Of a stretch of 64,000 bases of DNA, positions 9,830 to 23,548 are shown piece after piece. The stretch is from an uncultured virus (IMG/VR IMGVR_UViG_3300034190_003093) (Duplodnaviria > Heunggongvirae > Uroviricota > Caudoviricetes), in IMG/VR virus record IMGVR_UViG_3300034190_003093, positions 1 through 64,000 of that record; one strand, 5' to 3'. Numbering within the stretch: position 1 is the stretch's first letter; every line of letters starts with the position of its first letter. The translations under genes and the position numbers were made by a program. The notes below the pieces were generated by a model. The model was not told the origin of the DNA and did no database searches. It was given only the letters and a program-made list of their open reading frames with translations.

Positions 9830-9903
9830 TTACTTTCACGGCCTTTAAACGGCCAGCCGTTAAATTCATCGTCGGGCTTGGTGTCTTTTTGTGTTTTGCT
9901 CAT
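9826..9903 (-). CDS. 25-aa micro-ORF (MSKTQKDTKPDDEFNGWPFKGRESK)
   Basis: ATGA overlaps at both ends, exactly bridging glyA and the next gene. Confidence 0.5.
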   Translation of the reverse strand: MSKTQKDTKPDDEFNGWPFKGRESK

Positions 9904-11039
9904 TCTAGTATATCTGCAATCTTATGTGCTAATTTTCTAAACCACGTTTCATCATGCCCACGAGTAGTTTCGGCAGCTGTGCCAATACGAATGCCACTTG
10001 TTTCTACAAAGCTACGTGGATCATTTGGTATACCGTTCTTGTTTACTGTGATACCATTTTCTTCTAGTAAGTCTGCGGCTTGTCTGCCACTATACTTGCT
10101 GTTACTTAGATCCATAAGAATAATATGACTGTCAGTGCCGCCTGTTTGTACTGGCAAATCACGCTGTCTAAACACATCACACATAGCCTTAGCATTGCGT
10201 ACAACCGCCTGTGCGTAGTTTTTATAGTCTTGTGTGTCTGCTTCAATAAAGCACTGTGCCTTGGCAGCAATGATGTGCATAAGCGGGCCACCTTGTGTGC
10301 CAGGGAAGATAGCACTATTAATCTTACGTGTAAGTTCTTCGTTGTTCCATAAGATAATACCGCCACGTGGACCACGCAGTGTTTTATGTGTTGTACTAGT
10401 CACTACATCAGCATAGGGCACTGGATTTGGATACACTCCGCCTGCAATCAATCCTGAATAATGTGCCATGTCAACCAATAGATAAGCACCCACAGCGTTT
10501 GCAATATAGCGCATTTGTGCCCAGTCAACTTCACGTGGATAAGCACTAGCACCGGCAACAATCATTTTTGGTTTAACACGCTCGGCTATATCACGAATAT
10601 TTTCATAATCTAACCAACCTTCTTTGTTTACGCCATACGAATGAGCTTCATAAACTTTACCTGAAATATTAACAGGAGCACCGTGCGACAAATGGCCGCC
10701 GCTTGCTAGGTCCATACCAAGGATCTTATCACCTGGTTTCATTAGTGCTTGATATACTGCTGTGTTAGCATTAGCACCTGAGTGTGGCTGTACGTTTGCA
10801 AACTTTGCTCCGTACAGGTTACACAATGTGTCAATCGCAAGTGTTTCAATCTCATCCATATGCTCGCAACCGTTGTAGTAACGCTTGCCTGGATATCCTT
10901 CTGCATACTTGTTTGTAAATACACTGCCTGCTAAATCCATAACTGCTTGACTAGCAAAGTTTTCACTTGCAATAAGTTCTATTGTCGATTCTTGTCGTGC
11001 TGCTTCTCTATTTAAGATTTGATAAATTTTGTCATTCAT
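9900..11039 (-). CDS. glyA: Serine hydroxymethyltransferase
   Basis: LIASEN, KYAEGYPGKRYY, GGHLSHG, TTHKTLRGPRGG (PLP Lys), PGTQGGP. Confidence 0.97.
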   Translation of the reverse strand: MNDKIYQILNREAARQESTIELIASENFASQAVMDLAGSVFTNKYAEGYPGKRYYNGCEHMDEIETLAIDTLCNLYGAKFANVQPHSGANANTAVYQALMKPGDKILGMDLASGGHLSHGAPVNISGKVYEAHSYGVNKEGWLDYENIRDIAERVKPKMIVAGASAYPREVDWAQMRYIANAVGAYLLVDMAHYSGLIAGGVYPNPVPYADVVTSTTHKTLRGPRGGIILWNNEELTRKINSAIFPGTQGGPLMHIIAAKAQCFIEADTQDYKNYAQAVVRNAKAMCDVFRQRDLPVQTGGTDSHIILMDLSNSKYSGRQAADLLEENGITVNKNGIPNDPRSFVETSGIRIGTAAETTRGHDETWFRKLAHKIADILE

Positions 11040-11437
11040 TATAATGCTGCTACCTTTGTTTGTAATGTGCTAATCAAACTTGCAAGTCCGTTGCGTCTGT
11101 TGCTGCTTAGGATGCCTTCTAATGATAATGCTTCAAAGTCACCACGCTGAATCTTTTTGGCTTCGTCTAGTGGCAAATCATTGAAACAATCACAGACAAC
11201 ATGTGTCACACCTTTTGTAATCATAGCATCACTGTCGTAATAAATTTTAGTTTTATTATCAACTGTGCCTACATCTACCCAAATACTGCTGATACACCCG
11301 CTTACAAGTTTATCATCTGTTCTCAGTTCCGCAGGCAGTGATGTAGGTTTTTTGGCCATGTCAATCAACAACTGATACTGATCCATTACATCGTCGAAGA
11401 TTGACAACTCGTCTGCCCATTGTTGAATTTTGTTCAA
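11039..11437 (-). CDS. sufE: SufE-family Fe-S sulfur acceptor
   Basis: VSGCISSIWV, DSDAMITKG, LSSNRRNG. Confidence 0.85.
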   Translation of the reverse strand: MNKIQQWADELSIFDDVMDQYQLLIDMAKKPTSLPAELRTDDKLVSGCISSIWVDVGTVDNKTKIYYDSDAMITKGVTHVVCDCFNDLPLDEAKKIQRGDFEALSLEGILSSNRRNGLASLISTLQTKVAAL

Positions 11438-11847
11438 GTTCTGTTGCCTCTAAGTGCAAAGAACATACCACCTACCCAAAGTAGAACGTGGAAATGGTCA
11501 TTTAGTAGCACTTCCGACACGCTTTCGGGTTCTGCCATCCAAATAACACCAGTCATAATACTAGCAATAGTGATGCCAGCAAATCGTGTTAACAGATCGC
11601 TGATTTCTTTAAGATACTTTATAAGTGCTCCGCTAACAAGTAACCCTACTCCAGCACCGAGTTCACCATAGGCAACAGTCCACCACACAAGATAAGGTAG
11701 GTCGTATGCTTCTGCTACTTCTATGTCAACTGGGATCTTGTCTAAGCCTTGTTGAATAAAAATGATTGCCAAGGGGATCCTCAGCAACCAATGTGACATA
11801 CAGAACTCTGGGATTTTATTGACAAGTGTTTTAATCAACTTGTTCAC
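11434..11847 (-). CDS. DoxX-family membrane protein
   Basis: LLRIPLA..F..QG..K, ELGAG..L..G, TRFAG. Confidence 0.75.
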   Translation of the reverse strand: MNKLIKTLVNKIPEFCMSHWLLRIPLAIIFIQQGLDKIPVDIEVAEAYDLPYLVWWTVAYGELGAGVGLLVSGALIKYLKEISDLLTRFAGITIASIMTGVIWMAEPESVSEVLLNDHFHVLLWVGGMFFALRGNRT

Positions 11848-12193
11848 CCATAGATGTCAGATAATCAATAATGTCAGCACGTTTGGCTTCTTTGCGCTCC
11901 TTGAAGTTCATCTTGGTGCCTTTAACTAATTTCTTAGAGTTAGTTAGCCACGCATCCATGAGCTCCGGGGTCCACTGTGGATTCTCTTCGGCCCAGGTAG
12001 CAAACTTTTTGCTGTATTTAAAGTCAGCAGTTCCGGTGCCGCGATTCATGATATTCCAAAGGTTTGGCCCAACTTTATTTTTGCCACCTTCTTCGATACT
12101 GTGACAAGAGACACATTTTTTAAATGCCTTGTCGGCTATAGCAGGTGTAGAAAATGTTGCTGCGATTGCAAGTGTTAATAATACGTTTTTCAT
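11831..12193 (-). CDS. Cytochrome c2-like class I cytochrome c
   Basis: Signal peptide, CVSCH, KVGPNL, GTKM axial Met. Confidence 0.92.
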   Translation of the reverse strand: MKNVLLTLAIAATFSTPAIADKAFKKCVSCHSIEEGGKNKVGPNLWNIMNRGTGTADFKYSKKFATWAEENPQWTPELMDAWLTNSKKLVKGTKMNFKERKEAKRADIIDYLTSMGEQVD

Positions 12194-12287
12194 TTGTTTT
12201 CCTATTTTATAATGTACAAACTGGTAATTTATAGTATTTAACAGAAATTTGTGGTGCTAGGATATTCTTATTATGTATGCTACTTGA

Positions 12288-12422
12288 TTAGAAAGTTGGG
12301 TACATTGCATGTTTGTATTCGCTGATACGGTTTGCTTCGCTGTACAAACCTTTGTTGCGTAGTTCTCTAATTGCCATGCAGTATGAGCGATATTCCATTG
12401 CTTTGATAAAACGTTTAAACAT
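12288..12422 (-). CDS. Small basic protein (44 aa, not in ORF track)
   Basis: TAATG coupling; MFKRFIKAMEYRSYCMAIRELRNKG. Confidence 0.6.
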   Translation of the reverse strand: MFKRFIKAMEYRSYCMAIRELRNKGLYSEANRISEYKHAMYPTF

Positions 12423-12610
12423 TATTTGCTCTCCAACATAAGTGCTTTTGCTTCTTCTGTGTAACCCAAACGGTGTAGTTCAGCAGCTGCTCTTGCTCTG
12501 CCTGCTGATTCACCAATGGCCCATACGCCCATTGCAAATGCTACTGCATACTTGCCAAGTGTTTTGATAAACTTGGGCGCTTGTACTGGTAGGTTTCCTA
12601 CTACTTCCAT
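12422..12610 (-). CDS. Small protein
   Basis: TAATG coupling; GRARAAAELHRLGY. Confidence 0.6.
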   Translation of the reverse strand: MEVVGNLPVQAPKFIKTLGKYAVAFAMGVWAIGESAGRARAAAELHRLGYTEEAKALMLESK

Positions 12611-12864
12611 TATGCCCAACCTCTCACATTGCGTGTAACGCTAGAAACTGTTGTGCCTTTTGGATATGACGAATTAGCAATGTGCCAAATGTCGCAGCGA
12701 GTGAGACCAATGTCGTTTAGTTCGCGATTTGATAGTTGATTAAGTTCTTTGATTGTGAAACGGATCAATTTGCGTCTTTGATGCTCATTGATTGCTTTTT
12801 TGATCCAGTTAAAAACGCTAGCAATGCCAGCCTGGTTAAATGTGTTTGCTACTACTGTAGTCAT
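12610..12864 (-). CDS. DUF1127 (YjiS-like) small protein
   Basis: RR..R.TIKELNQLSNRELNDIGLTRCDI signature; GAGG RBS before ATG at 12864. Confidence 0.88.
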   Translation of the reverse strand: MTTVVANTFNQAGIASVFNWIKKAINEHQRRKLIRFTIKELNQLSNRELNDIGLTRCDIWHIANSSYPKGTTVSSVTRNVRGWA

Positions 12865-13035
12865 TGTTCGTATCCTCAAGTATGTGTATGTGTTAAAAAA
12901 TGTATATTGCAACCAACCCTATGCTGCGTTGCAACACATTTATTTATAAAGTATAATACAGAAATTTGCTAAAAACAACTGTTTATAGCGCATACTCGAT
13001 ATGCAATACATGCAATGCTTTTAGATCTTTTCAGG

Positions 13036-16470: not shown

Positions 16471-16803
16471 ATGCGTTACTTGTACATATGGTCAAATCAT
16501 TTGGGACGCACGTGTTTTGGTATTACAAGTAATCCCGACAATCGCAAACGCAAGTACGAAGGGCACACAGGCTTTGAAGTTAACTGGACAAAACTATATG
16601 CAGGTCCTAGCAATCACATCGAAGACTTAGAAGATCGTATTAAAAGCGAATTTTGGGATCACTTGTTCTACACTACCACTGGCAAGTACGAATGGATACG
16701 TGAAGACATCAACACTGATCAAATAATACAATGGTTAGAATGGGAAGTTGACAACACTTACGAAAATGTTATAAATGAAGTTGATGTTACAACCAATACA
16801 TAG
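16471..16803 (+). CDS. GIY-YIG-like nuclease
   Basis: YLYIW...FGITSNPDNRKRKY...LE..IK...EW. Confidence 0.6.
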   Translation: MRYLYIWSNHLGRTCFGITSNPDNRKRKYEGHTGFEVNWTKLYAGPSNHIEDLEDRIKSEFWDHLFYTTTGKYEWIREDINTDQIIQWLEWEVDNTYENVINEVDVTTNT

Positions 16804-17011
16804 CAACTAGCATCGGTATTATAATTGCAAATTGAGGGAGAAAGTTCAGTATAAGAGCTTTCTCCTTCCATCTATATCCAACATAGATCCATCCTGTGGC
16901 ACCCACCATCTGTAATAAACTGTTCCAAGGCGTGATGCCTGCTACATGCAACACCATAGCACACAATATAGTTACGGCGCTAGCATACTTTACAAAAACT
17001 ATATGATTCAT
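16787..17011 (-). CDS. Small three-helix membrane protein
   Basis: Hydrophobic, last gene of minus-strand operon. Confidence 0.6.
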   Translation of the reverse strand: MNHIVFVKYASAVTILCAMVLHVAGITPWNSLLQMVGATGWIYVGYRWKEKALILNFLPQFAIIIPMLVAMYWL

Positions 17012-17164
17012 AGTGCACCCCTGTGTGAGCTAGCTAGTTTAATAAGATCATCTAACTCAGTGTGCTCTACATAATGCATATACATTTGGATTGCTTCCAA
17101 ATATTTTAGCATATAAGTGGTTGCCGCTACCCTGTGGCCCAACTGCTATTGTTAGTTGTTTCAT
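17008..17164 (-). pseudogene. Internally deleted P-loop (sulfotransferase/kinase-like) gene remnant
   Basis: Coupled start MKQLTIAVGPQGSGNH stops after 35 aa; a second frame ends HYVEHTELDDLIKLASSHRGAL in an ATGA overlap with the next gene; 157 nt is not a multiple of 3. Confidence 0.55.
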
Positions 17165-17832
17165 ACCTCAATTTGAAGATCATAGTGCGAGAACAGCATG
17201 TGCATTTCTGTTGTTGCTACACCTGTTACTAGTAAGGTACAACGTGGACTTCTGCCTGCGTTTGCTGTACAATGTGGCGAATTAAACCAATCAAAACTGT
17301 AAATCTCGCCTGCACGATACCCTGTGTGAACTTGGTTGCCGTACTGTAAGAAGTGACCGGGTTCCCAATCGTTTAACATAACCATAAATCGATAAACACT
17401 CTTAGGATCTGCTTTATTCCATTTTTCTAATTTATCAACATGCAAGTTCCACACTTGTCCGGGCATCTGCACATGGACTCGGCGCTGTACATCTCTATCA
17501 TCGCCTGGTAGTAAGTGTAGCGCATCAGTCATACGCTGGAAAACAGGTTCAATTGCATAGTCTAGTTTGGTTAAAACCAAGTCAGCAGGCGCACCAGTAT
17601 TGATCAAATCTAGTTCTTCTGCTTCAATGTCTTCACTGCCGTTTGGATTATCAATTGGATTGCGTGTGCGCCAAGTAATGTCGTTACTTTTTTCAACTGT
17701 TCTATCCAGTGCTTCTTTCCAATCACCTGTGAACTTGCCCACATAGCGCATACTGTCATAAGCAGGGTCATGCTTAAATGCATCATAGTGATAGTTGTTG
17801 CGTGGAGCAGTTTTTTCCCAATTGCTTTCCAT
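17161..17832 (-). CDS. 2OG-Fe(II) oxygenase-like/cupin protein
   Basis: HVD...H triad, DWEPGH, TANAG..PR.TL.VTG. Confidence 0.7.
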   Translation of the reverse strand: MESNWEKTAPRNNYHYDAFKHDPAYDSMRYVGKFTGDWKEALDRTVEKSNDITWRTRNPIDNPNGSEDIEAEELDLINTGAPADLVLTKLDYAIEPVFQRMTDALHLLPGDDRDVQRRVHVQMPGQVWNLHVDKLEKWNKADPKSVYRFMVMLNDWEPGHFLQYGNQVHTGYRAGEIYSFDWFNSPHCTANAGRSPRCTLLVTGVATTEMHMLFSHYDLQIEV

Positions 17833-17917
17833 TGCTGTTTATTCCTTTTAAAAATGTGTGTGTGTGTGGAAGAGCCAAATACCCTTCCACACATTAGTCA
17901 TCTACTTATTAATAGCT

Positions 17918-18970
17918 TTACGGAAATAGATTTTCTTTGAGTATTGAGTTAAGTCCCAATGCTTCTTTGTTGAATTTTACCAAGTTGCGTAGTGCATCTT
18001 CTGTGATAAATGTCATTAGTGTGTCACGCATTTGGTCGCCACGCTCACCAATAAACCATTCGTACTTGCCGTTTTTAGCTTCAATAACTGCCATTGACTC
18101 TGGGTCGTTTGCCATTTTGTTCATTGCTGCTACCAAGCGATCACGCAATTCTGGATTACCTTTGTTGACCCAAATTGCTTTTTGTAGACCATCACGGAAT
18201 GATTTAACTAATACATACGCATCGTAAAACTCGCCGCTTGCTTCTACGCCCCAACGCTCTTTAAACTTGATTTCAAATTGGTAACCTGGGAAGTTTGGAT
18301 CATCTACGTGCTTGCCTGTAGCTGGATCAAGCAAACCATGGTGAAACCAAAGTTCTGCATTTTCGTCTGGTGCAATGTGGATTTGGTATGTAGCCGGATT
18401 TTCACGTGAACCTGTTAAGTCGCCACGTTTAAATGCAAGACGGCGTTCTCCGCCACTCATACCTTTAACCCATTTAAAGTTTTCACCAAAGCAAGTAATA
18501 TACTCATCAACGGATTTATCTGGGCCACATGTCATCATTGCCATAGCAAATGCTTCTGGGACAGCACCACTTGTGCCAGCAAAGATTGCTTTATCCATGT
18601 CTGCGCCTTTAACTTTGCCCATGATAATGTTCAAGTTCATAAGACCAATTGAATCATAGTCGGCATAGTTGTAGTCAACTTCTTCTTGCAAGAAGCTTAC
18701 ACCGTTACCGCCATGCGTAACAACAATTGTGTTTTCGTCAAAACGTAGATCGTTATGCCAAGCATTGATACCCGGAATGTCTCGTGCGCCCGGAATGTTG
18801 CGAAGAACAATACGCTCACCTAGATGCTTTGAAAGCTCTTTCATAATGATTTCAGTCCAAACAGTTGTGCCACCGCCTGGTTTTTGCGGGTTTACCACTG
18901 TAATATCAGCTGTTGCTGTGGTTGCTGCAAGTGCAAATACTGCGCCTGCTAGTAGTGTTTTAATTGGCAT
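17918..18970 (-). CDS. TctC/Bug-like periplasmic binding protein of tripartite tricarboxylate transporter
   Basis: Signal peptide, P.KPGGGT, NIPGA, adjacent to tctA. Confidence 0.75.
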   Translation of the reverse strand: MPIKTLLAGAVFALAATTATADITVVNPQKPGGGTTVWTEIIMKELSKHLGERIVLRNIPGARDIPGINAWHNDLRFDENTIVVTHGGNGVSFLQEEVDYNYADYDSIGLMNLNIIMGKVKGADMDKAIFAGTSGAVPEAFAMAMMTCGPDKSVDEYITCFGENFKWVKGMSGGERRLAFKRGDLTGSRENPATYQIHIAPDENAELWFHHGLLDPATGKHVDDPNFPGYQFEIKFKERWGVEASGEFYDAYVLVKSFRDGLQKAIWVNKGNPELRDRLVAAMNKMANDPESMAVIEAKNGKYEWFIGERGDQMRDTLMTFITEDALRNLVKFNKEALGLNSILKENLFP

Positions 18971-18979
18971 GTTTTTCTC

Positions 18980-20518
18980 CTATACGAAATCAATTTTTGC
19001 TTTGTTAAAAAATATTCCCCATATTGCAGCCGCTATTGCTAGTGCAATAAATGCTGCTGGGAAGGGTTCAAGTAATAAATCTTCCCATCCGTAACCGAAT
19101 GTGTTGAATTGTACCCAACTTGCTTCAAGTCTATGTGATAAGATAAATCCAATTAGGAAACTTATACGACTGAATTTAAAATACTTCATACCTAGTCCAG
19201 CCACGCAACACATAGCAAACATAAGATAATCATCAATGAATCCTGTGTACTGTGATGTAGTCCATACTAGACTTGCCATAATAGGCCAGAAGTAATATTT
19301 GAATGGAATATTGGTAATGTAAACTGCATAACGAATGAATCCGTAACTAATTGGCAGAATAATTATCAAGCTCCACAGATAACTGCTCAGTAAGTGGTCA
19401 AAGAACACGCCGTCTGCTAGCACTGCTGGGCTACCTAATTCAAGCCCAACATACATAAGCAAGCCCATTACAATAACTTCAAACGGTGCACCCGGAATAC
19501 CAAACAAAATAGTAGGAACATAACTGGTAGCCTTTTGTGCATTGTTGGCACCTTCGCATCCAATTACACCTTGTACATTACCTTGTCCTACTGGGTACCC
19601 TTCGCCATTGTAATCGTCAACCTCACCTTTTGTTTTTTTGCGTGACAGTGCAACTGTTTGACTATATGCAAACCAATCTGCAATGTTGCCGCCGATGCCA
19701 GGCACTAGTCCTACAAAACCGCCGATGAATCCACCACGCAGTCCGTCCCAACGATATTTCCAAGTGTCCTTGATACCTTGCCACAACTGGTTGAGAATAT
19801 CACCTTTAGTTAAACTAACCTTTGTGGCTTTCATTCTGTATGCACTTACTAGTTCTGGAAATGCTAGTACACCTGCCATCACTGGAATCATTTGAATTCC
19901 ATTTTCGATATAGTCCCAGTCAGTAAAGTAAACACGCCATGTGTCAAAGTCAAAGTTTGGTATTACTGTAATCCAACGCTGTGCTGCGGTGTCTGGGTCC
20001 ATACCCACTAGTCCTAACACAACCCCCGCTACAAGCGCAAAGATGCCACGGATCCAGTATTTGCTGCTAATAAAAATAACACATGTCATTGCAAACAACA
20101 AAAATGCAAACATTTCAGTAGTGCCAAAATACAGTACAATTTTAGTATAATATGGTAGAAACAAAAATACCAGCAATCCCCAAATCAAACCGTTTACCCA
20201 ACTTGTACTAATTGCTGCACTAAGTGCTCGTGCCGCTTGTCCCCGTCTACTCATTGGAAATCCATCCACCATAGTAGCCGCTGCGCCACCTGCTCCCGGA
20301 ACGTTCATTACAACACCGCAAAATGTATCACCGATGCTGCTAGTAACAACTACTGCGGTTGTAAACACTACTAGCATGTAAGGATCATGGAAATACGTAA
20401 CAAAACTGTACACAGCAATCAGCCCTGTGGTTGCACCAGCAACTGGTATTAATCCTACAAAAAATCCATAGAACACTCCTAACATTAATACTATAATATA
20501 TAAGTCAAGAAAATACAT
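18980..20518 (-). CDS. tctA: Tripartite tricarboxylate transporter large permease
   Basis: GLIP..G, NVPG, DGFPM...G.A..AL, GLVPGIGG, EGANNA, VPTILFGIPG. Confidence 0.88.
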   Translation of the reverse strand: MYFLDLYIIVLMLGVFYGFFVGLIPVAGATTGLIAVYSFVTYFHDPYMLVVFTTAVVVTSSIGDTFCGVVMNVPGAGGAAATMVDGFPMSRRGQAARALSAAISTSWVNGLIWGLLVFLFLPYYTKIVLYFGTTEMFAFLLFAMTCVIFISSKYWIRGIFALVAGVVLGLVGMDPDTAAQRWITVIPNFDFDTWRVYFTDWDYIENGIQMIPVMAGVLAFPELVSAYRMKATKVSLTKGDILNQLWQGIKDTWKYRWDGLRGGFIGGFVGLVPGIGGNIADWFAYSQTVALSRKKTKGEVDDYNGEGYPVGQGNVQGVIGCEGANNAQKATSYVPTILFGIPGAPFEVIVMGLLMYVGLELGSPAVLADGVFFDHLLSSYLWSLIIILPISYGFIRYAVYITNIPFKYYFWPIMASLVWTTSQYTGFIDDYLMFAMCCVAGLGMKYFKFSRISFLIGFILSHRLEASWVQFNTFGYGWEDLLLEPFPAAFIALAIAAAIWGIFFNKAKIDFV

Positions 20519-20652
20519 AGTGCAGCCTTCATAGGAAAAATCTGGCTAATCTCAATGAGACTAGTCAGAGACAGACGATTACTCGCCCGAGTTAAAAATT
20601 ATTGGGATAGAAAAAGCTGAACTTCTTTACATTCGAGCGTTAGCTTTTCTTG
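20519..20652 (-). promoter_or_regulatory. Candidate structured cis-regulatory RNA/attenuator upstream of tctA
   Basis: 5' stem with possible loop pseudoknot, then a 13-position hairpin and T5 tract before the RBS. Confidence 0.45.
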
Positions 20653-20658
20653 TTAAAT

Positions 20659-21339
20659 TTATTTAGTACGCCAGACAAAGTACAGTCGATTTTTATGACT
20701 ATCGGTTCTTAAATCAAGAATATCAACGTTTAATTGTGTAGCACAGTTAACTACAAAGTTGCTATCCCATGGATAAAATGATATCCAGTTTGATTCATCC
20801 TTGTGGTGCGGCAAGCCAGGGTTTGCTCTAAAGAACATAATCGCACCTGGGTTGCACAAGTTTACTGCATGTTCTAGTTCTGCAAAAACTTTATCTGTGC
20901 TGCCAAAGTTGATTGATCCCAGTGCTAGCACTACATCATATTTTTCTTGCGGGTGATGATCCAGCAATTTAACAGTCAAATCAGCAGCATCATTGTAGGG
21001 GTCAATACCTATAATATTATCAATCTTGTGTTTGAACTCGTGATAGCCACATCCGATGTCTAGTACTTTGCGTGGTTTTAGTTTGTTAACTTCGTCAATT
21101 AATGCTGGGCCGCTGTACTTATATTTTGACATTTCGCCTTGCCAGTGATTTCTAAAGTATTCGTCCAGCACTTTGTCGTCAATTCGATCAACCAGCTCGC
21201 CGATATTATTATAATCTACACTGTCGAGTGAAACATTGAATGTACCCTGGATAGCCTGATGCAGTGTGTTTTTGTTGCGCAACAACTGCGGACTAGTATG
21301 CAGCATTTGCTCCAGTTTATTTAAGATTTTATGATTCAT
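20659..21339 (-). CDS. Class I SAM-dependent methyltransferase
   Basis: VLDIGCG, GIDP, YDVVLALGSINF. Confidence 0.8.
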   Translation of the reverse strand: MNHKILNKLEQMLHTSPQLLRNKNTLHQAIQGTFNVSLDSVDYNNIGELVDRIDDKVLDEYFRNHWQGEMSKYKYSGPALIDEVNKLKPRKVLDIGCGYHEFKHKIDNIIGIDPYNDAADLTVKLLDHHPQEKYDVVLALGSINFGSTDKVFAELEHAVNLCNPGAIMFFRANPGLPHHKDESNWISFYPWDSNFVVNCATQLNVDILDLRTDSHKNRLYFVWRTK

Positions 21340-21881
21340 TGAATGCCTTTTAGCGTGGTCATGAGGATGTCGCTGTGTTTTTTATGTTGTGCCCATTGTA
21401 ACTTATGTTGGCGAGCAAAGTCAAGTATTAATTTGTTCTGTTGATGAATCTGAACAGCCATAGTTGATTCATTTTGGTACCAATCATAGTTTGGGTATGT
21501 GATATCAAATCCGCCGGCTTGTAACCACCATTGCATGCTAGCAGGACCTGGCCGATACACAAGTGTTATCCAAGCATCCGGGTAGCGTTCAACAATCTCG
21601 TCGAAATAATAAGGCCATTCGTGGCTCATTAATAACTTAATGCCGCCGGCTTTTGAAAATGGTGCATCCAAGTTATACTCATCTAAGTCGGTATTGAATT
21701 CCATGCCCGTGCCAAAGTATGCATCCTTGTGTCCAGAAAAGTCACCATGTGTGTACACACGATGTGGTGCCCTGTCTGATGTGTTGTATTCTGGATTTAG
21801 TTTGATTTCTTGTGCTATTCCACTCCAGCGACTGCCGGGCACACCTGTGAAAAACTCATACTTGGGTAAAGATGTTGTCAT
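21336..21881 (-). CDS. P-loop/sulfotransferase-like protein
   Basis: N-terminal FTGVPGSRWS, later SH and LVYR resembling a sulfotransferase fold. Confidence 0.45.
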   Translation of the reverse strand: MTTSLPKYEFFTGVPGSRWSGIAQEIKLNPEYNTSDRAPHRVYTHGDFSGHKDAYFGTGMEFNTDLDEYNLDAPFSKAGGIKLLMSHEWPYYFDEIVERYPDAWITLVYRPGPASMQWWLQAGGFDITYPNYDWYQNESTMAVQIHQQNKLILDFARQHKLQWAQHKKHSDILMTTLKGIQ

Positions 21882-21938
21882 ACATTTAATTATCTGTAAA
21901 ATATACTCAAGAAAAATAAACTTTTTGGCATTTAGAGG

Positions 21939-21967
21939 TTGACCTTTTCTTTAGTTTCGGTTATAGT
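21939..21967 (+). promoter_or_regulatory. Early sigma70-type promoter
   Basis: TTGACC-N17-TATAGT. Confidence 0.65.
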
Positions 21968-22002
21968 ATAACTACAAAGAGAATAAAAAACAGGAGCAAA
22001 CA

Positions 22003-22470
22003 ATGTTAGCAGAAGCAATCATAAGTTTAACAGTAGCCTTTAGCAGCCCAGCAGAGCACGAGTGTCTTGCCAAGAATATTTACTTTGAAGCACGTAACCA
22101 AAGCGTGGCAGGAAAAGTAGCAGTATCACATGTGGTGTTTAATCGTGTCAACAGCAAGCGTTTTCCAGATACAATTTGCGGCGTGGTGTACCAAGGTGTA
22201 AAAAACAAAGACGGATCAATGAAACGCCATATGTGCCAGTTTAGTTGGTATTGCGATGGACTTAGTGATGCTCCTAAAGATCAAGAAGCATGGGAAGCTG
22301 CACAAGTGTTGGCATCAGAAGCATTGGTATTACACCAGCAAGGATACGATGGCACAGATGGGTCCATGTGGTATCATGCCAAGAATGTCAAACCAAACTG
22401 GCGCCCAGACTTTAACTTTGTTGGGCAAATTGATGACCACTTGTTTTATAGAGAGAAAAAACGCAAATGA
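22003..22470 (+). CDS. SleB-like cell wall hydrolase (Hydrolase_2)
   Basis: CLAKNIYFEAR, NRV...FPDTICGVVYQ, CQFSW, IDDHLFY. Confidence 0.9.
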   Translation: MLAEAIISLTVAFSSPAEHECLAKNIYFEARNQSVAGKVAVSHVVFNRVNSKRFPDTICGVVYQGVKNKDGSMKRHMCQFSWYCDGLSDAPKDQEAWEAAQVLASEALVLHQQGYDGTDGSMWYHAKNVKPNWRPDFNFVGQIDDHLFYREKKRK

Positions 22471-23156
22471 AATCGCACTTAACAGCCGTTGCACTAGCGT
22501 TTGGCACACCGAGTACCGCGGCTGATACTTCGCAGTACTTTGTTGAACTATACGATTACAAGTATACCGAGCCGGGTTTAATGTCCAAGGCTTCGTCATA
22601 CGGATTTGCTGGCATTGGATATCAAGATTACAAGTCTCGATATCAAAACGGATTTGTTGGCAATGCAAAGTATTTTGTCGGCACAACAGACTATACGTCG
22701 AGTAATACTGGCAAAACTAAAAATGACCTCACAACAGGTCTGTCGGGCGAAATATCATACAAATATAATTCTTTTTATATCGGGCTAGGCTTTCGGCAGC
22801 TAAATGATCGTTGGGGCGGCAAACAATCATCTACTGGACACTTCACATACAACAGAAGGTCGCAGTATCTATACGCACCGCTTGGCAATATAATATACAA
22901 CAACCGTGGTGGGTATTTCAAATATCAAGTTAACTATCTAATCAGTGGTAACCAAACTAGTTACATAACCCAAGCAGGCTATTCTCAAACAACTAATACC
23001 CAAGACAGTGGCTATGGAGTTGAATTAGAATGGTTGCCCAATCACAACTATGGTGTGTTTGCCACGCACTGGAACATTGCCGATTCATCTGTTAACAACG
23101 GATTGTATGAACCGCAAAACACTACCACCGAGTTTGGTTTTAAATTATTGTTCTAA
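22467..23156 (+). CDS. Outer-membrane beta-barrel protein
   Basis: Signal-like N-terminus, Tyr/Gly-rich alternating strands, C-terminal EFGFKLLF beta-signal. Confidence 0.65.
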   Translation: MKSHLTAVALAFGTPSTAADTSQYFVELYDYKYTEPGLMSKASSYGFAGIGYQDYKSRYQNGFVGNAKYFVGTTDYTSSNTGKTKNDLTTGLSGEISYKYNSFYIGLGFRQLNDRWGGKQSSTGHFTYNRRSQYLYAPLGNIIYNNRGGYFKYQVNYLISGNQTSYITQAGYSQTTNTQDSGYGVELEWLPNHNYGVFATHWNIADSSVNNGLYEPQNTTTEFGFKLLF

Positions 23157-23186
23157 CCGAAATCATCAAAACGGACAATGTTGGGT

Positions 23187-23215
23187 TTGACAACTTGGTC
23201 GTTTGATGCTACACT
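23187..23215 (+). promoter_or_regulatory. sigma70-type promoter
   Basis: TTGACA-N17-TACACT. Confidence 0.6.
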
Positions 23216-23269
23216 GTTTGCATGTTGTTAGAAAACTAACAGCGAAATCACAATTGGAGACAAATTAAT

Positions 23270-23548
23270 ATGACAACCACAACTACCACAACAAAGCAAG
23301 ATAAAGTACTTAATGCACTTATGGCTGGTGAGCAACTCACAGGCAAGCAAATTTCAGCACGCTTCGGCGTAGGTAATGCTCGTGCAACTGTATCAGCATT
23401 GCGCATGAAAGGCTTTGCTATCTATGCTAACGAGTCAACAGACACTAAGGGTCGTGTGAAAATCAAGTATCGCTTGGGTCGCCCATCTCGTGCTGTTGTT
23501 GCTGCTGGTTACAAAGCACTTGCGGCTGCATCACGTGCCGCAGCCTAA
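23270..23548 (+). CDS. Small winged-helix DNA-binding protein
   Basis: LT.KQI..RFGV.N.RATVS.LR..G..IY; own promoter and terminator. Confidence 0.7.
   Translation: MTTTTTTTKQDKVLNALMAGEQLTGKQISARFGVGNARATVSALRMKGFAIYANESTDTKGRVKIKYRLGRPSRAVVAAGYKALAAASRAAA

Follow-up and report, generated by a model that had tools for sequence, protein, structure and literature searches.

The cassette and its setting

The window, i.e. the whole stretch of DNA that was analysed, covers the first 64 kb of a virus record of 137.5 kb, and an identical 300-kb contig exists in IMG/VR. The source phage is T4-like, as judged from its baseplate and tail-fibre matches. The element described here occupies a gap on the minus strand between a methyltransferase-like gene (20659–21339) and tctA (18980–20518), among the genes of an import-and-tailoring cassette:

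17161–17832 (−), cassette gene, probable Fe/2-oxoglutarate oxygenase (HxD...H pattern)
17918–18970 (−), divergent TctC/Bug-like binding protein, 350 aa (profile match to BugD 2f5x, E 6.5e-4)
18980–20518 (−), tctA, TTT-family membrane permease, 512 aa (PF01970, E 2e-79), first gene after the leader
20659–21339 (−), SAM-dependent methyltransferase-like cassette gene (PF13489, E 2e-6), upstream of the element here
21336–21881 (−), sulfotransferase-like cassette gene

The labels oxygenase, sulfotransferase-like and P-loop are based on motifs, without family matches. An Atlas neighbour of the TctC/Bug-like protein carries PF03401 on 17% of its members, and the probable oxygenase gene lies near the element in 30 of 42 loci. 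The P-loop (GPQG) cassette gene survives in the window as a 35-codon remnant (17057–17164, minus strand); tblastn gives two fragments, corresponding to the start and the end of the relatives' intact gene, which suggests an internal deletion. Adjoining the cassette, positions 22467–23156 (plus strand) encode a 229-aa protein with a signal-like start, a terminal Phe and no family match, possibly an outer-membrane barrel; this gene is near the cassette in just 2 of 110 long loci. Elsewhere in the window, a host-type metabolic gene cluster (9900–12912, minus strand) includes SHMT (PF00464) and ORFs that look, on inspection by eye alone, like SufE, DoxX, cytochrome c and DUF1127; the cluster hints at a host among the Alphaproteobacteria.

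A late promoter and the leader behind it

The leader contains the following features, all on the minus strand:

20660–20665 (−), hexamer TAAATA of a T4-type late promoter, which shares bases with the methyltransferase stop codon
20642–20650 (−), 5′ arm of stem P1, ending in the top pair (U20642); defined by covariation and fold
20635–20642 (−), 5′ core strand UAACGCUC, comprising AAC of the fixed helix, the internal-loop GC and UC of P2
20626–20634 (−), apical loop, variable, 4–20 nt in relatives
20618–20625 (−), 3′ core strand GAAGUUCA, comprising GA of P2, the loop A, GUU, the bulged C (20619) and the top-pair A
20609–20617 (−), 3′ arm of P1, with the Shine-Dalgarno region as its alternative partner in the window's lineage
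20604–20606 (−), single-stranded conserved C-tract
20581–20592 (−), small lineage-specific hairpin (predicted fold) containing the proposed pseudoknot partner
20541–20569 (−), second hairpin, with U5 after it (−12.5 kcal/mol; stem of 13 positions with one mismatch; loop of 3 nt)
20526–20530 (−), Shine-Dalgarno-like GAAGG of tctA, recognised by sequence
20491–20532 (−), out-of-frame AUG (20532) with a 13-codon ORF that overlaps the current Shine-Dalgarno sequence and start

Genome-wide, 30 of the 99 copies of TAAATA fall in the 8.5% of the DNA that is non-coding, many of them before structural genes. Because TAAATA is a phage late promoter, the element heads its own transcript, for which we infer a start at about 20654. 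The sequence-only reading had placed the leader inside the operon, gating tctA; that placement has to be given up, as tctA has its own late promoter directly before the element. Among the collected relatives (see below), TAANTA stands 8–32 nt ahead of the core in 119 of 119 leaders, part of the set having been found with the promoter in the search pattern. A few copies (L458, L010–13, L616–621) have no recognisable TAANTA. In three of four RNA-library runs, contigs cover the promoter, the leader, the hairpin and tctA; they carry no information on strand, start or termination and may be DNA.

The first hairpin is conserved and covaries

The conserved element is the first hairpin alone (20609–20650, minus strand). 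At its base is the strongly covarying stem P1; above this come a bulged C, an AAC/GUU helix that is almost invariant, a small internal loop and a P2 of 2–3 bp, and the C-tract follows the hairpin. Folded alone, the first stem takes the form that the sequence-only reading had drawn for it, with two UC/GA pairs added above the internal loop. The strings and coordinates of that drawing (arms 20650–39 and 20622–09, loop hexamer 20638–33, downstream partner 20590–85) are exact, and the stem itself goes beyond chance, since it also covaries across relatives. The apical loops of relatives are often UNCG- or GNRA-like or hold an additional hairpin. Of the 119 leaders, 88 (12 of 17 lineages) have CCC behind P1, as against 4 of 58 in the next 15-nt window, and this tract is unpaired in 2D models.

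Relatives were collected by pattern and by protein. An exact pattern scan of viral contigs gave 60 matches, of which 14 were retained and 46 discarded as coding or chance, many of the discarded ones falling in one unrelated coding sequence. A metagenome scan gave at least 120 matches, with at least 99 kept and 21 dropped before alignment for a poor P1 together with the lack of a cassette gene, and a scan with other promoter variants gave 76 matches, 74 of them real. Matches to a looser pattern were almost all chance and were set aside, and a model match in L467 (22 bits) was rejected as coding DNA. Altogether, the element is present in at least 119 distinct leaders (172 loci), each before a gene of one import-and-tailoring cassette; promoter-linked descriptor matches in 3.9 Mb precede cassette genes in 38 of 38 cases. 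The 137.5-kb virus record holds a single copy.

The first model comprised 56 rows, with duplicates and six long-loop rows removed and the window added, and its core is invariant by construction. Across these 56 sequences, pairing is 100% at each of the three pairs below the core, which have 23–32 double changes apiece, and the covariation score of P1 is 0.475, compared with at most 0.16 for slid partners. A second alignment of 38 hand-picked variant rows brought double changes to 11 of 13 pairs, including P2 and the top pair (34 U-A, 4 C-G). Among the core variants, the top pair changes from U-A to C-G, P2 from UC/GA to CU/AG and, at a single locus, AAC/GUU to AAG/CUU; five positions (AA, UU and the bulged C) stay the same in every variant. 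Loci anchored on tctA likewise share a common core on stems that differ and compensate. Thus, alignment upstream of phage tctA homologues, which the sequence-only reading had proposed as a check, yields a conserved, covarying first hairpin. The first model matches 57 of 80 protein-anchored loci, chiefly of one clade, and the AA/UU bulged-C helix is found in 68 of 130 distinct protein-anchored upstream regions, where ~2.5 are expected. As the fixed core is seen in protein-anchored sets, it is not merely an artefact of the pattern. G-U pairs and UNCG loops favour an RNA of the sense strand. The opposite strand resembles the pyrophosphate helix of the TPP riboswitch; this candidate was dropped, as the G-U pairs favour the sense strand and no Rfam family matches. 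The element is therefore a 5′ leader structure that is both conserved and covarying, as the structural definition of a riboswitch class asks.

Some tctA leaders carry other or altered hairpins at this place. The upstream regions of L005, L007, L008, L010–L013, L015, L018, L097 and L523 have a different, A/U-rich promoter-proximal hairpin, with a tetraloop starting GA and a stem that varies and remains complementary; several of these leaders hold a divergent copy or look-alike of the element further downstream, its loop often with CGAGUG. Before tctA in L082–L084 and L092, P1, the C-tract and the second hairpin are as in L106 and the core is altered on both strands, making it either a degenerate copy or a specificity variant.

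The element is confined to phage cassettes among the sequences searched

Rfam 15 gave 0 matches at gathering score in the 64-kb window and 0 in ten related loci; with E up to 10, the leader gave just one chance microRNA match, on the second hairpin. The Rfam comparison that the sequence-only reading had suggested thus assigned the window to no family. In a shallow search (only 39 candidates scored per genome), the element was not found in 453 cellular genomes from three groups, and 15 of 16 tctA loci from the genome collection are without it. The exception, L354, is a contig of a bacterial MAG that carries the phage cassette, its neighbours and the element; as the cassette and these neighbours are common to phages, it is probably a mis-binned phage contig. 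IMG/VR holds 484 tctA relatives, and the cassette is absent from isolate phage records. A literature search found no published description of the element. The main text and four supplementary files of Fremin 2023 (PMC10690425) contain neither TctA nor the core string; the element may be among the unnamed candidates of that study. We conclude from comparative sequence analysis that the element is a real, conserved and uncatalogued cis-regulatory RNA, and a new family.

The first gene behind the element is tctA in 102 of the 119 leaders, tctC in 12, a ferritin-like gene with the full diiron ligand set in 3 and the P-loop gene in 2; in L458 a sulfotransferase-like gene comes first. An unrelated SSF sodium:solute symporter replaces TctA/TctC in 57 phage loci (L605–L661) with similar tailoring genes, and the element lies directly before the symporter in 5 of these 57 (two leader lineages). 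By sequence searches, the symporter has a remote DUR3/SSS likeness and the cassette binding protein a remote Bug/TctC likeness. In all, six kinds of first gene and two unrelated transporter families stand behind one element, the pathway association of a riboswitch class. Since the element precedes both kinds of importer, it is tied to the pathway rather than to the TctA protein. All 42 long loci with the element have the methyltransferase, compared with 61 of 68 without, and this is the only gene constant in all element-bearing long loci; 68 of the 110 long cassette loci lack the element.

Several neighbours deserve mention in their own right. The ferritin-like diiron protein directly behind the element in L241, L249, L284 and L351 has more than 2000 homologues, and its Atlas neighbours are nearly all viral; in L241 and L284 its gene is followed by a Peptidase_C26 amidotransferase and then tctA. 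A QueE-like radical-SAM gene, recognised by motif only, lies immediately upstream of the element's promoter in L267, L295 and L370. Methyltransferase-like genes, as judged by motif, also flank the closest tctA/tctC pairs of cellular genomes.

The second hairpin resembles a split ribosome-binding site

The hairpin at 20569–41, its five U residues, the ribosome-binding site (GAAGG, 20530–26) and the tctA ATG (20518) are where the sequence-only reading had put them. Its interpretation of this arrangement as a terminator or attenuator fares poorly across the family. Many leaders do without the second hairpin: 61 of 119 have the start codon at most 35 nt from the core and no such hairpin. A hairpin at least as stable as −5 kcal/mol occurs in 56 of the 58 long leaders, in unrelated sequences; runs of at least five U occur in 10 of the 58 and of at least seven in none. 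Terminator-like sites in 16500–23500 number 5, against 5.3 in shuffles. Hence the combination that defines a transcription attenuator, namely a conserved hairpin, a long U-run and an overlapping antiterminator, was not found.

The position of the long-leader hairpins relative to the start codon is more telling. When the hairpin ends at most 13 nt from the AUG (31 long leaders), AGG stands at its 5′ foot in 26 and a Shine-Dalgarno sequence beside the start in 2; in the remaining 27, AGG is at the foot in 1 and a Shine-Dalgarno sequence beside the start in 19. Short leaders have a Shine-Dalgarno sequence in 5 of 61 only. Going by sequence layout, the relatives' second hairpins would fit the T4 type of split ribosome-binding site, and by analogy the second hairpin of relatives mostly looks like such a site, a description that does not apply to the window itself. 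There, the AGG foot has been lost, the AUG after the hairpin (20532), which occupies the position of the true tctA start in many relatives, is out of frame, and a new Shine-Dalgarno sequence and start lie 14 nt beyond it. Given this shift, the second hairpin and U5 of the window are probably left over from a split ribosome-binding site and would at most terminate weakly. L050, L064, L284, L293 and L296, like the window, retain a short ORF from the AUG behind the second hairpin although the true start has shifted downstream, and in some of this set the short ORF ends on the new start codon.

Pairing between the hairpin and the start region

The sequence-only reading also had the loop of the first hairpin pairing with a downstream hexamer as a pseudoknot. 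This pairing is at chance level: when the 90 nt downstream were dinucleotide-shuffled 1000 times, a 6-bp complement to the loop arose in 836 of the shuffles. It is broken in 4 of 5 leaders of the window's lineage, where the partner is altered and the loop unchanged, and a GCUC partner is present in 30 of 119 leaders, compared with 21.8 by shuffle. In the predicted fold the partner is occupied by the local hairpin 20592–81, whose stem is kept while the partner sequence changes in L271, L313, L328 and L339. We found no conserved downstream strand over the ribosome site with which the loop would pair, the arrangement of an H-type pseudoknot riboswitch.

A different pairing stands out in the window's lineage. 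The duplex between the P1 arm and the start region (−11.3) beats 16 of 16 chimeric controls in both directions, as it does in one other lineage of 17, and the full alternative fold in the window has a z of −2.35. This helix joins A/U-rich strands, and among five close leaders it shows no compensatory change and one mismatch. Over the 17 lineages, native versus chimeric pairing of either P1 arm with the start region was not significant (p 0.23 and 0.17), nor was family-wide pairing of the C-tract with the start region (p 0.27 and 0.61). P1 is predicted to be the dominant fold already in 94 of 119 leaders without ligand. Forcing P1 alters access to the start region by more than 1 kcal/mol in just 13 of 119 leaders (0.9 in the window), in a comparison that is one-sided by construction. 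An expression platform exclusive with the aptamer is therefore predicted in the window's lineage and a few others, not family-wide.

Proposed function and its rivals

Conserved bases held in a freely covarying scaffold indicate that something reads the hairpin. The element probably senses something and tunes translation of a nutrient-import-and-modification operon. Our tentative preference is for a leader of the orphan-riboswitch kind that recognises a small molecule and controls translation of the first gene. According to this proposal, the leader RNA at the 5′ end of the late cassette mRNA would act like a small orphan riboswitch aptamer, with a small molecule of the cassette pathway (the cargo, its methylated product, or SAM/SAH) binding at the bulge and internal loop, and the C-tract probably taking part in ligand binding. 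SAM/SAH or a methylated cargo is suggested because the methyltransferase is the one constant partner; it is a guess from gene association. In the window's lineage, the nascent P1 fold would face a competitor predicted to be more stable by ~2.5 kcal/mol, with the Shine-Dalgarno sequence paired to the 3′ arm of P1 and codons 2–4 paired to its 5′ arm. Since this modelled fold conceals the ribosome site, a bound ligand would switch on translation of tctA. For most relatives no alternative 2D fold is predicted, and any control there would have to come through tertiary docking of the C/A-rich tail, which falls in or next to the ribosome footprint. Neither a pseudoknot nor a conserved terminator would be involved. 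The small number of invariant nucleotides (~5) available for a metabolite pocket counts against a small-molecule ligand, as do the absence from the cellular genomes searched and the many cassettes without the element. A more specific version, which we consider somewhat doubtful, is a phage-specific riboswitch class with a ~45-nt aptamer that senses an imported or phage-modified molecule, different phage lineages having independently acquired different expression platforms (a translational ON switch in the window's lineage). If true, the ligand would name the cargo that the TctA/TctC cassettes and the SSF cassettes import.

A protein might read the hairpin instead. Protein operators typically have a short fixed helix and one bulge, with stem and loop free to vary, and the element resembles them in size and shape. 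In such a model a protein bound to the bulged-C helix would repress or activate translation of the first gene; the pre-formed fold would require no refolding, and in the leaders with a start codon at most 35 nt away the bound protein could block the ribosome. The phage-only distribution so far and the methyltransferase in every element-bearing long locus are in keeping with this, and the cassette methyltransferase (as an autoregulator), another phage protein or a host protein are conceivable candidates. However, the start codon can be as far as 160 nt away, the methyltransferase also occurs in most element-free loci, and no RNA-binding protein was identified; TctA and TctC are ruled out as the regulator because the element heads SSF cassettes too. 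Overall, we regard an operator as possible, short of probable. The element could also act on transcription or decay, either as an antitermination or processivity signal for the late polymerase or as a regulated protection of the 5′ end of the operon message. The element stays close to the promoter (8–32 nt), whereas its distance from the start codon varies (19–160 nt); it is indifferent to the Shine-Dalgarno sequence of the first gene, which few short leaders possess, and the conserved unpaired C-tract could be a second box. A role in transcription or decay is nevertheless unlikely, since the element belongs to one cassette only and the other late promoters of the phage lack it, no conserved downstream terminator was seen, and a few copies have no recognisable TAANTA.

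An element without any sensing function, whether a constitutive 5′ stabilising hairpin or a DNA-level site by the promoter, would account for the 5′-terminal position and for the different hairpins at the same place in other tctA leaders. Neither role, though, would require divergent lineages to share the bulged C, the C-tract and a fixed AAC/GUU helix, and G-U pairs with stable tetraloops indicate RNA, so that we consider this explanation improbable. Least credible, and in our view very improbable, is the model of the sequence-only reading, a pseudoknot aptamer with an intrinsic terminator forming an attenuator inside the operon. Five leaders of the window's lineage do keep the pairing of the second hairpin followed by U5–6, and weak termination there is conceivable; but the aptamer and the hairpin do not overlap and so leave no antiterminator, and the chance-level pseudoknot, the leaders without the hairpin, the absence of U7 and the separate late promoter all speak against it. 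What endures of the riboswitch-like layout is the position, the gene association and the covarying conserved RNA; the pseudoknot and the terminator fall away. That reading was to be abandoned if homologues showed no upstream conservation, or if termination was constitutive and tctA had a separate promoter: conservation is present, and a separate promoter was found.

The element offers a compact, easily synthesised RNA family tied to an abundant cassette of uncultured phages. Its binding partner would reveal either a phage-only riboswitch class together with the cargo, or a new phage translational regulator, and either outcome would mean that lytic marine phages regulate nutrient import late in infection.

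Comparison with known systems

The iron-responsive element carries a CAGUGH hexaloop five pairs above a bulged C on the 5′ side; the element described here has a loop that is free to vary and carries its bulged C on the 3′ strand. The operator of T4 gene 43 (gp43) is a leader hairpin ~40 nt before the start, with UAAC, or CAAC in a SELEX variant (PMC3014915), and these tetramers are those at the 5′ strand of the element's core. However, the T4 tetramer is in a loop and regulates DNA polymerase, whereas that of the element is paired (U-A to C-G) and precedes import genes, and we treat the match as coincidence. T4 genes 38 and 25 have split ribosome-binding sites in which a hairpin between the Shine-Dalgarno sequence and the AUG shortens the spacing (PMC3014915); this layout would account for the second hairpin of the relatives, not for the conserved first hairpin.

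The SAM/SAH riboswitch of Roseobacter-type bacteria, in which an H-type pseudoknot occludes the ribosome site (PMC7367207), resembles the element as described there in its very small hairpin aptamer, extra pairs atop P1 and translational control, and the SAM-dependent methyltransferase that always accompanies the element's cassette adds a further link; the element differs in having no conserved pseudoknot and no Rfam match. The riboswitches found in phages are host classes (PMC5473149, PMC9004378); known riboswitches are reported to be rare in phages, which may use undiscovered classes (PMC5473149). The glutamine (glnA) riboswitch of phage Melnitz and cyanophages (PMC9004378, PMC5473149) is among the few classes reported in marine T4-like phages; it is a known class common to hosts, whereas the element has no match. 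Close parallels are manA (RF01745) and wcaG (RF01761), motifs of marine metagenomes and T4-like cyanophages; like the element, they are orphan candidates for riboswitches that marine T4-like phages carry in the 5′ UTRs of auxiliary metabolic genes (PMC2864571). They precede other genes, the element matches neither in Rfam, and manA is also described from cellular genomes (PMC2864571), whereas the element was not found in those searched. The element is not a member of either motif; by analogy, it would work as an orphan phage leader motif of the manA and wcaG kind.
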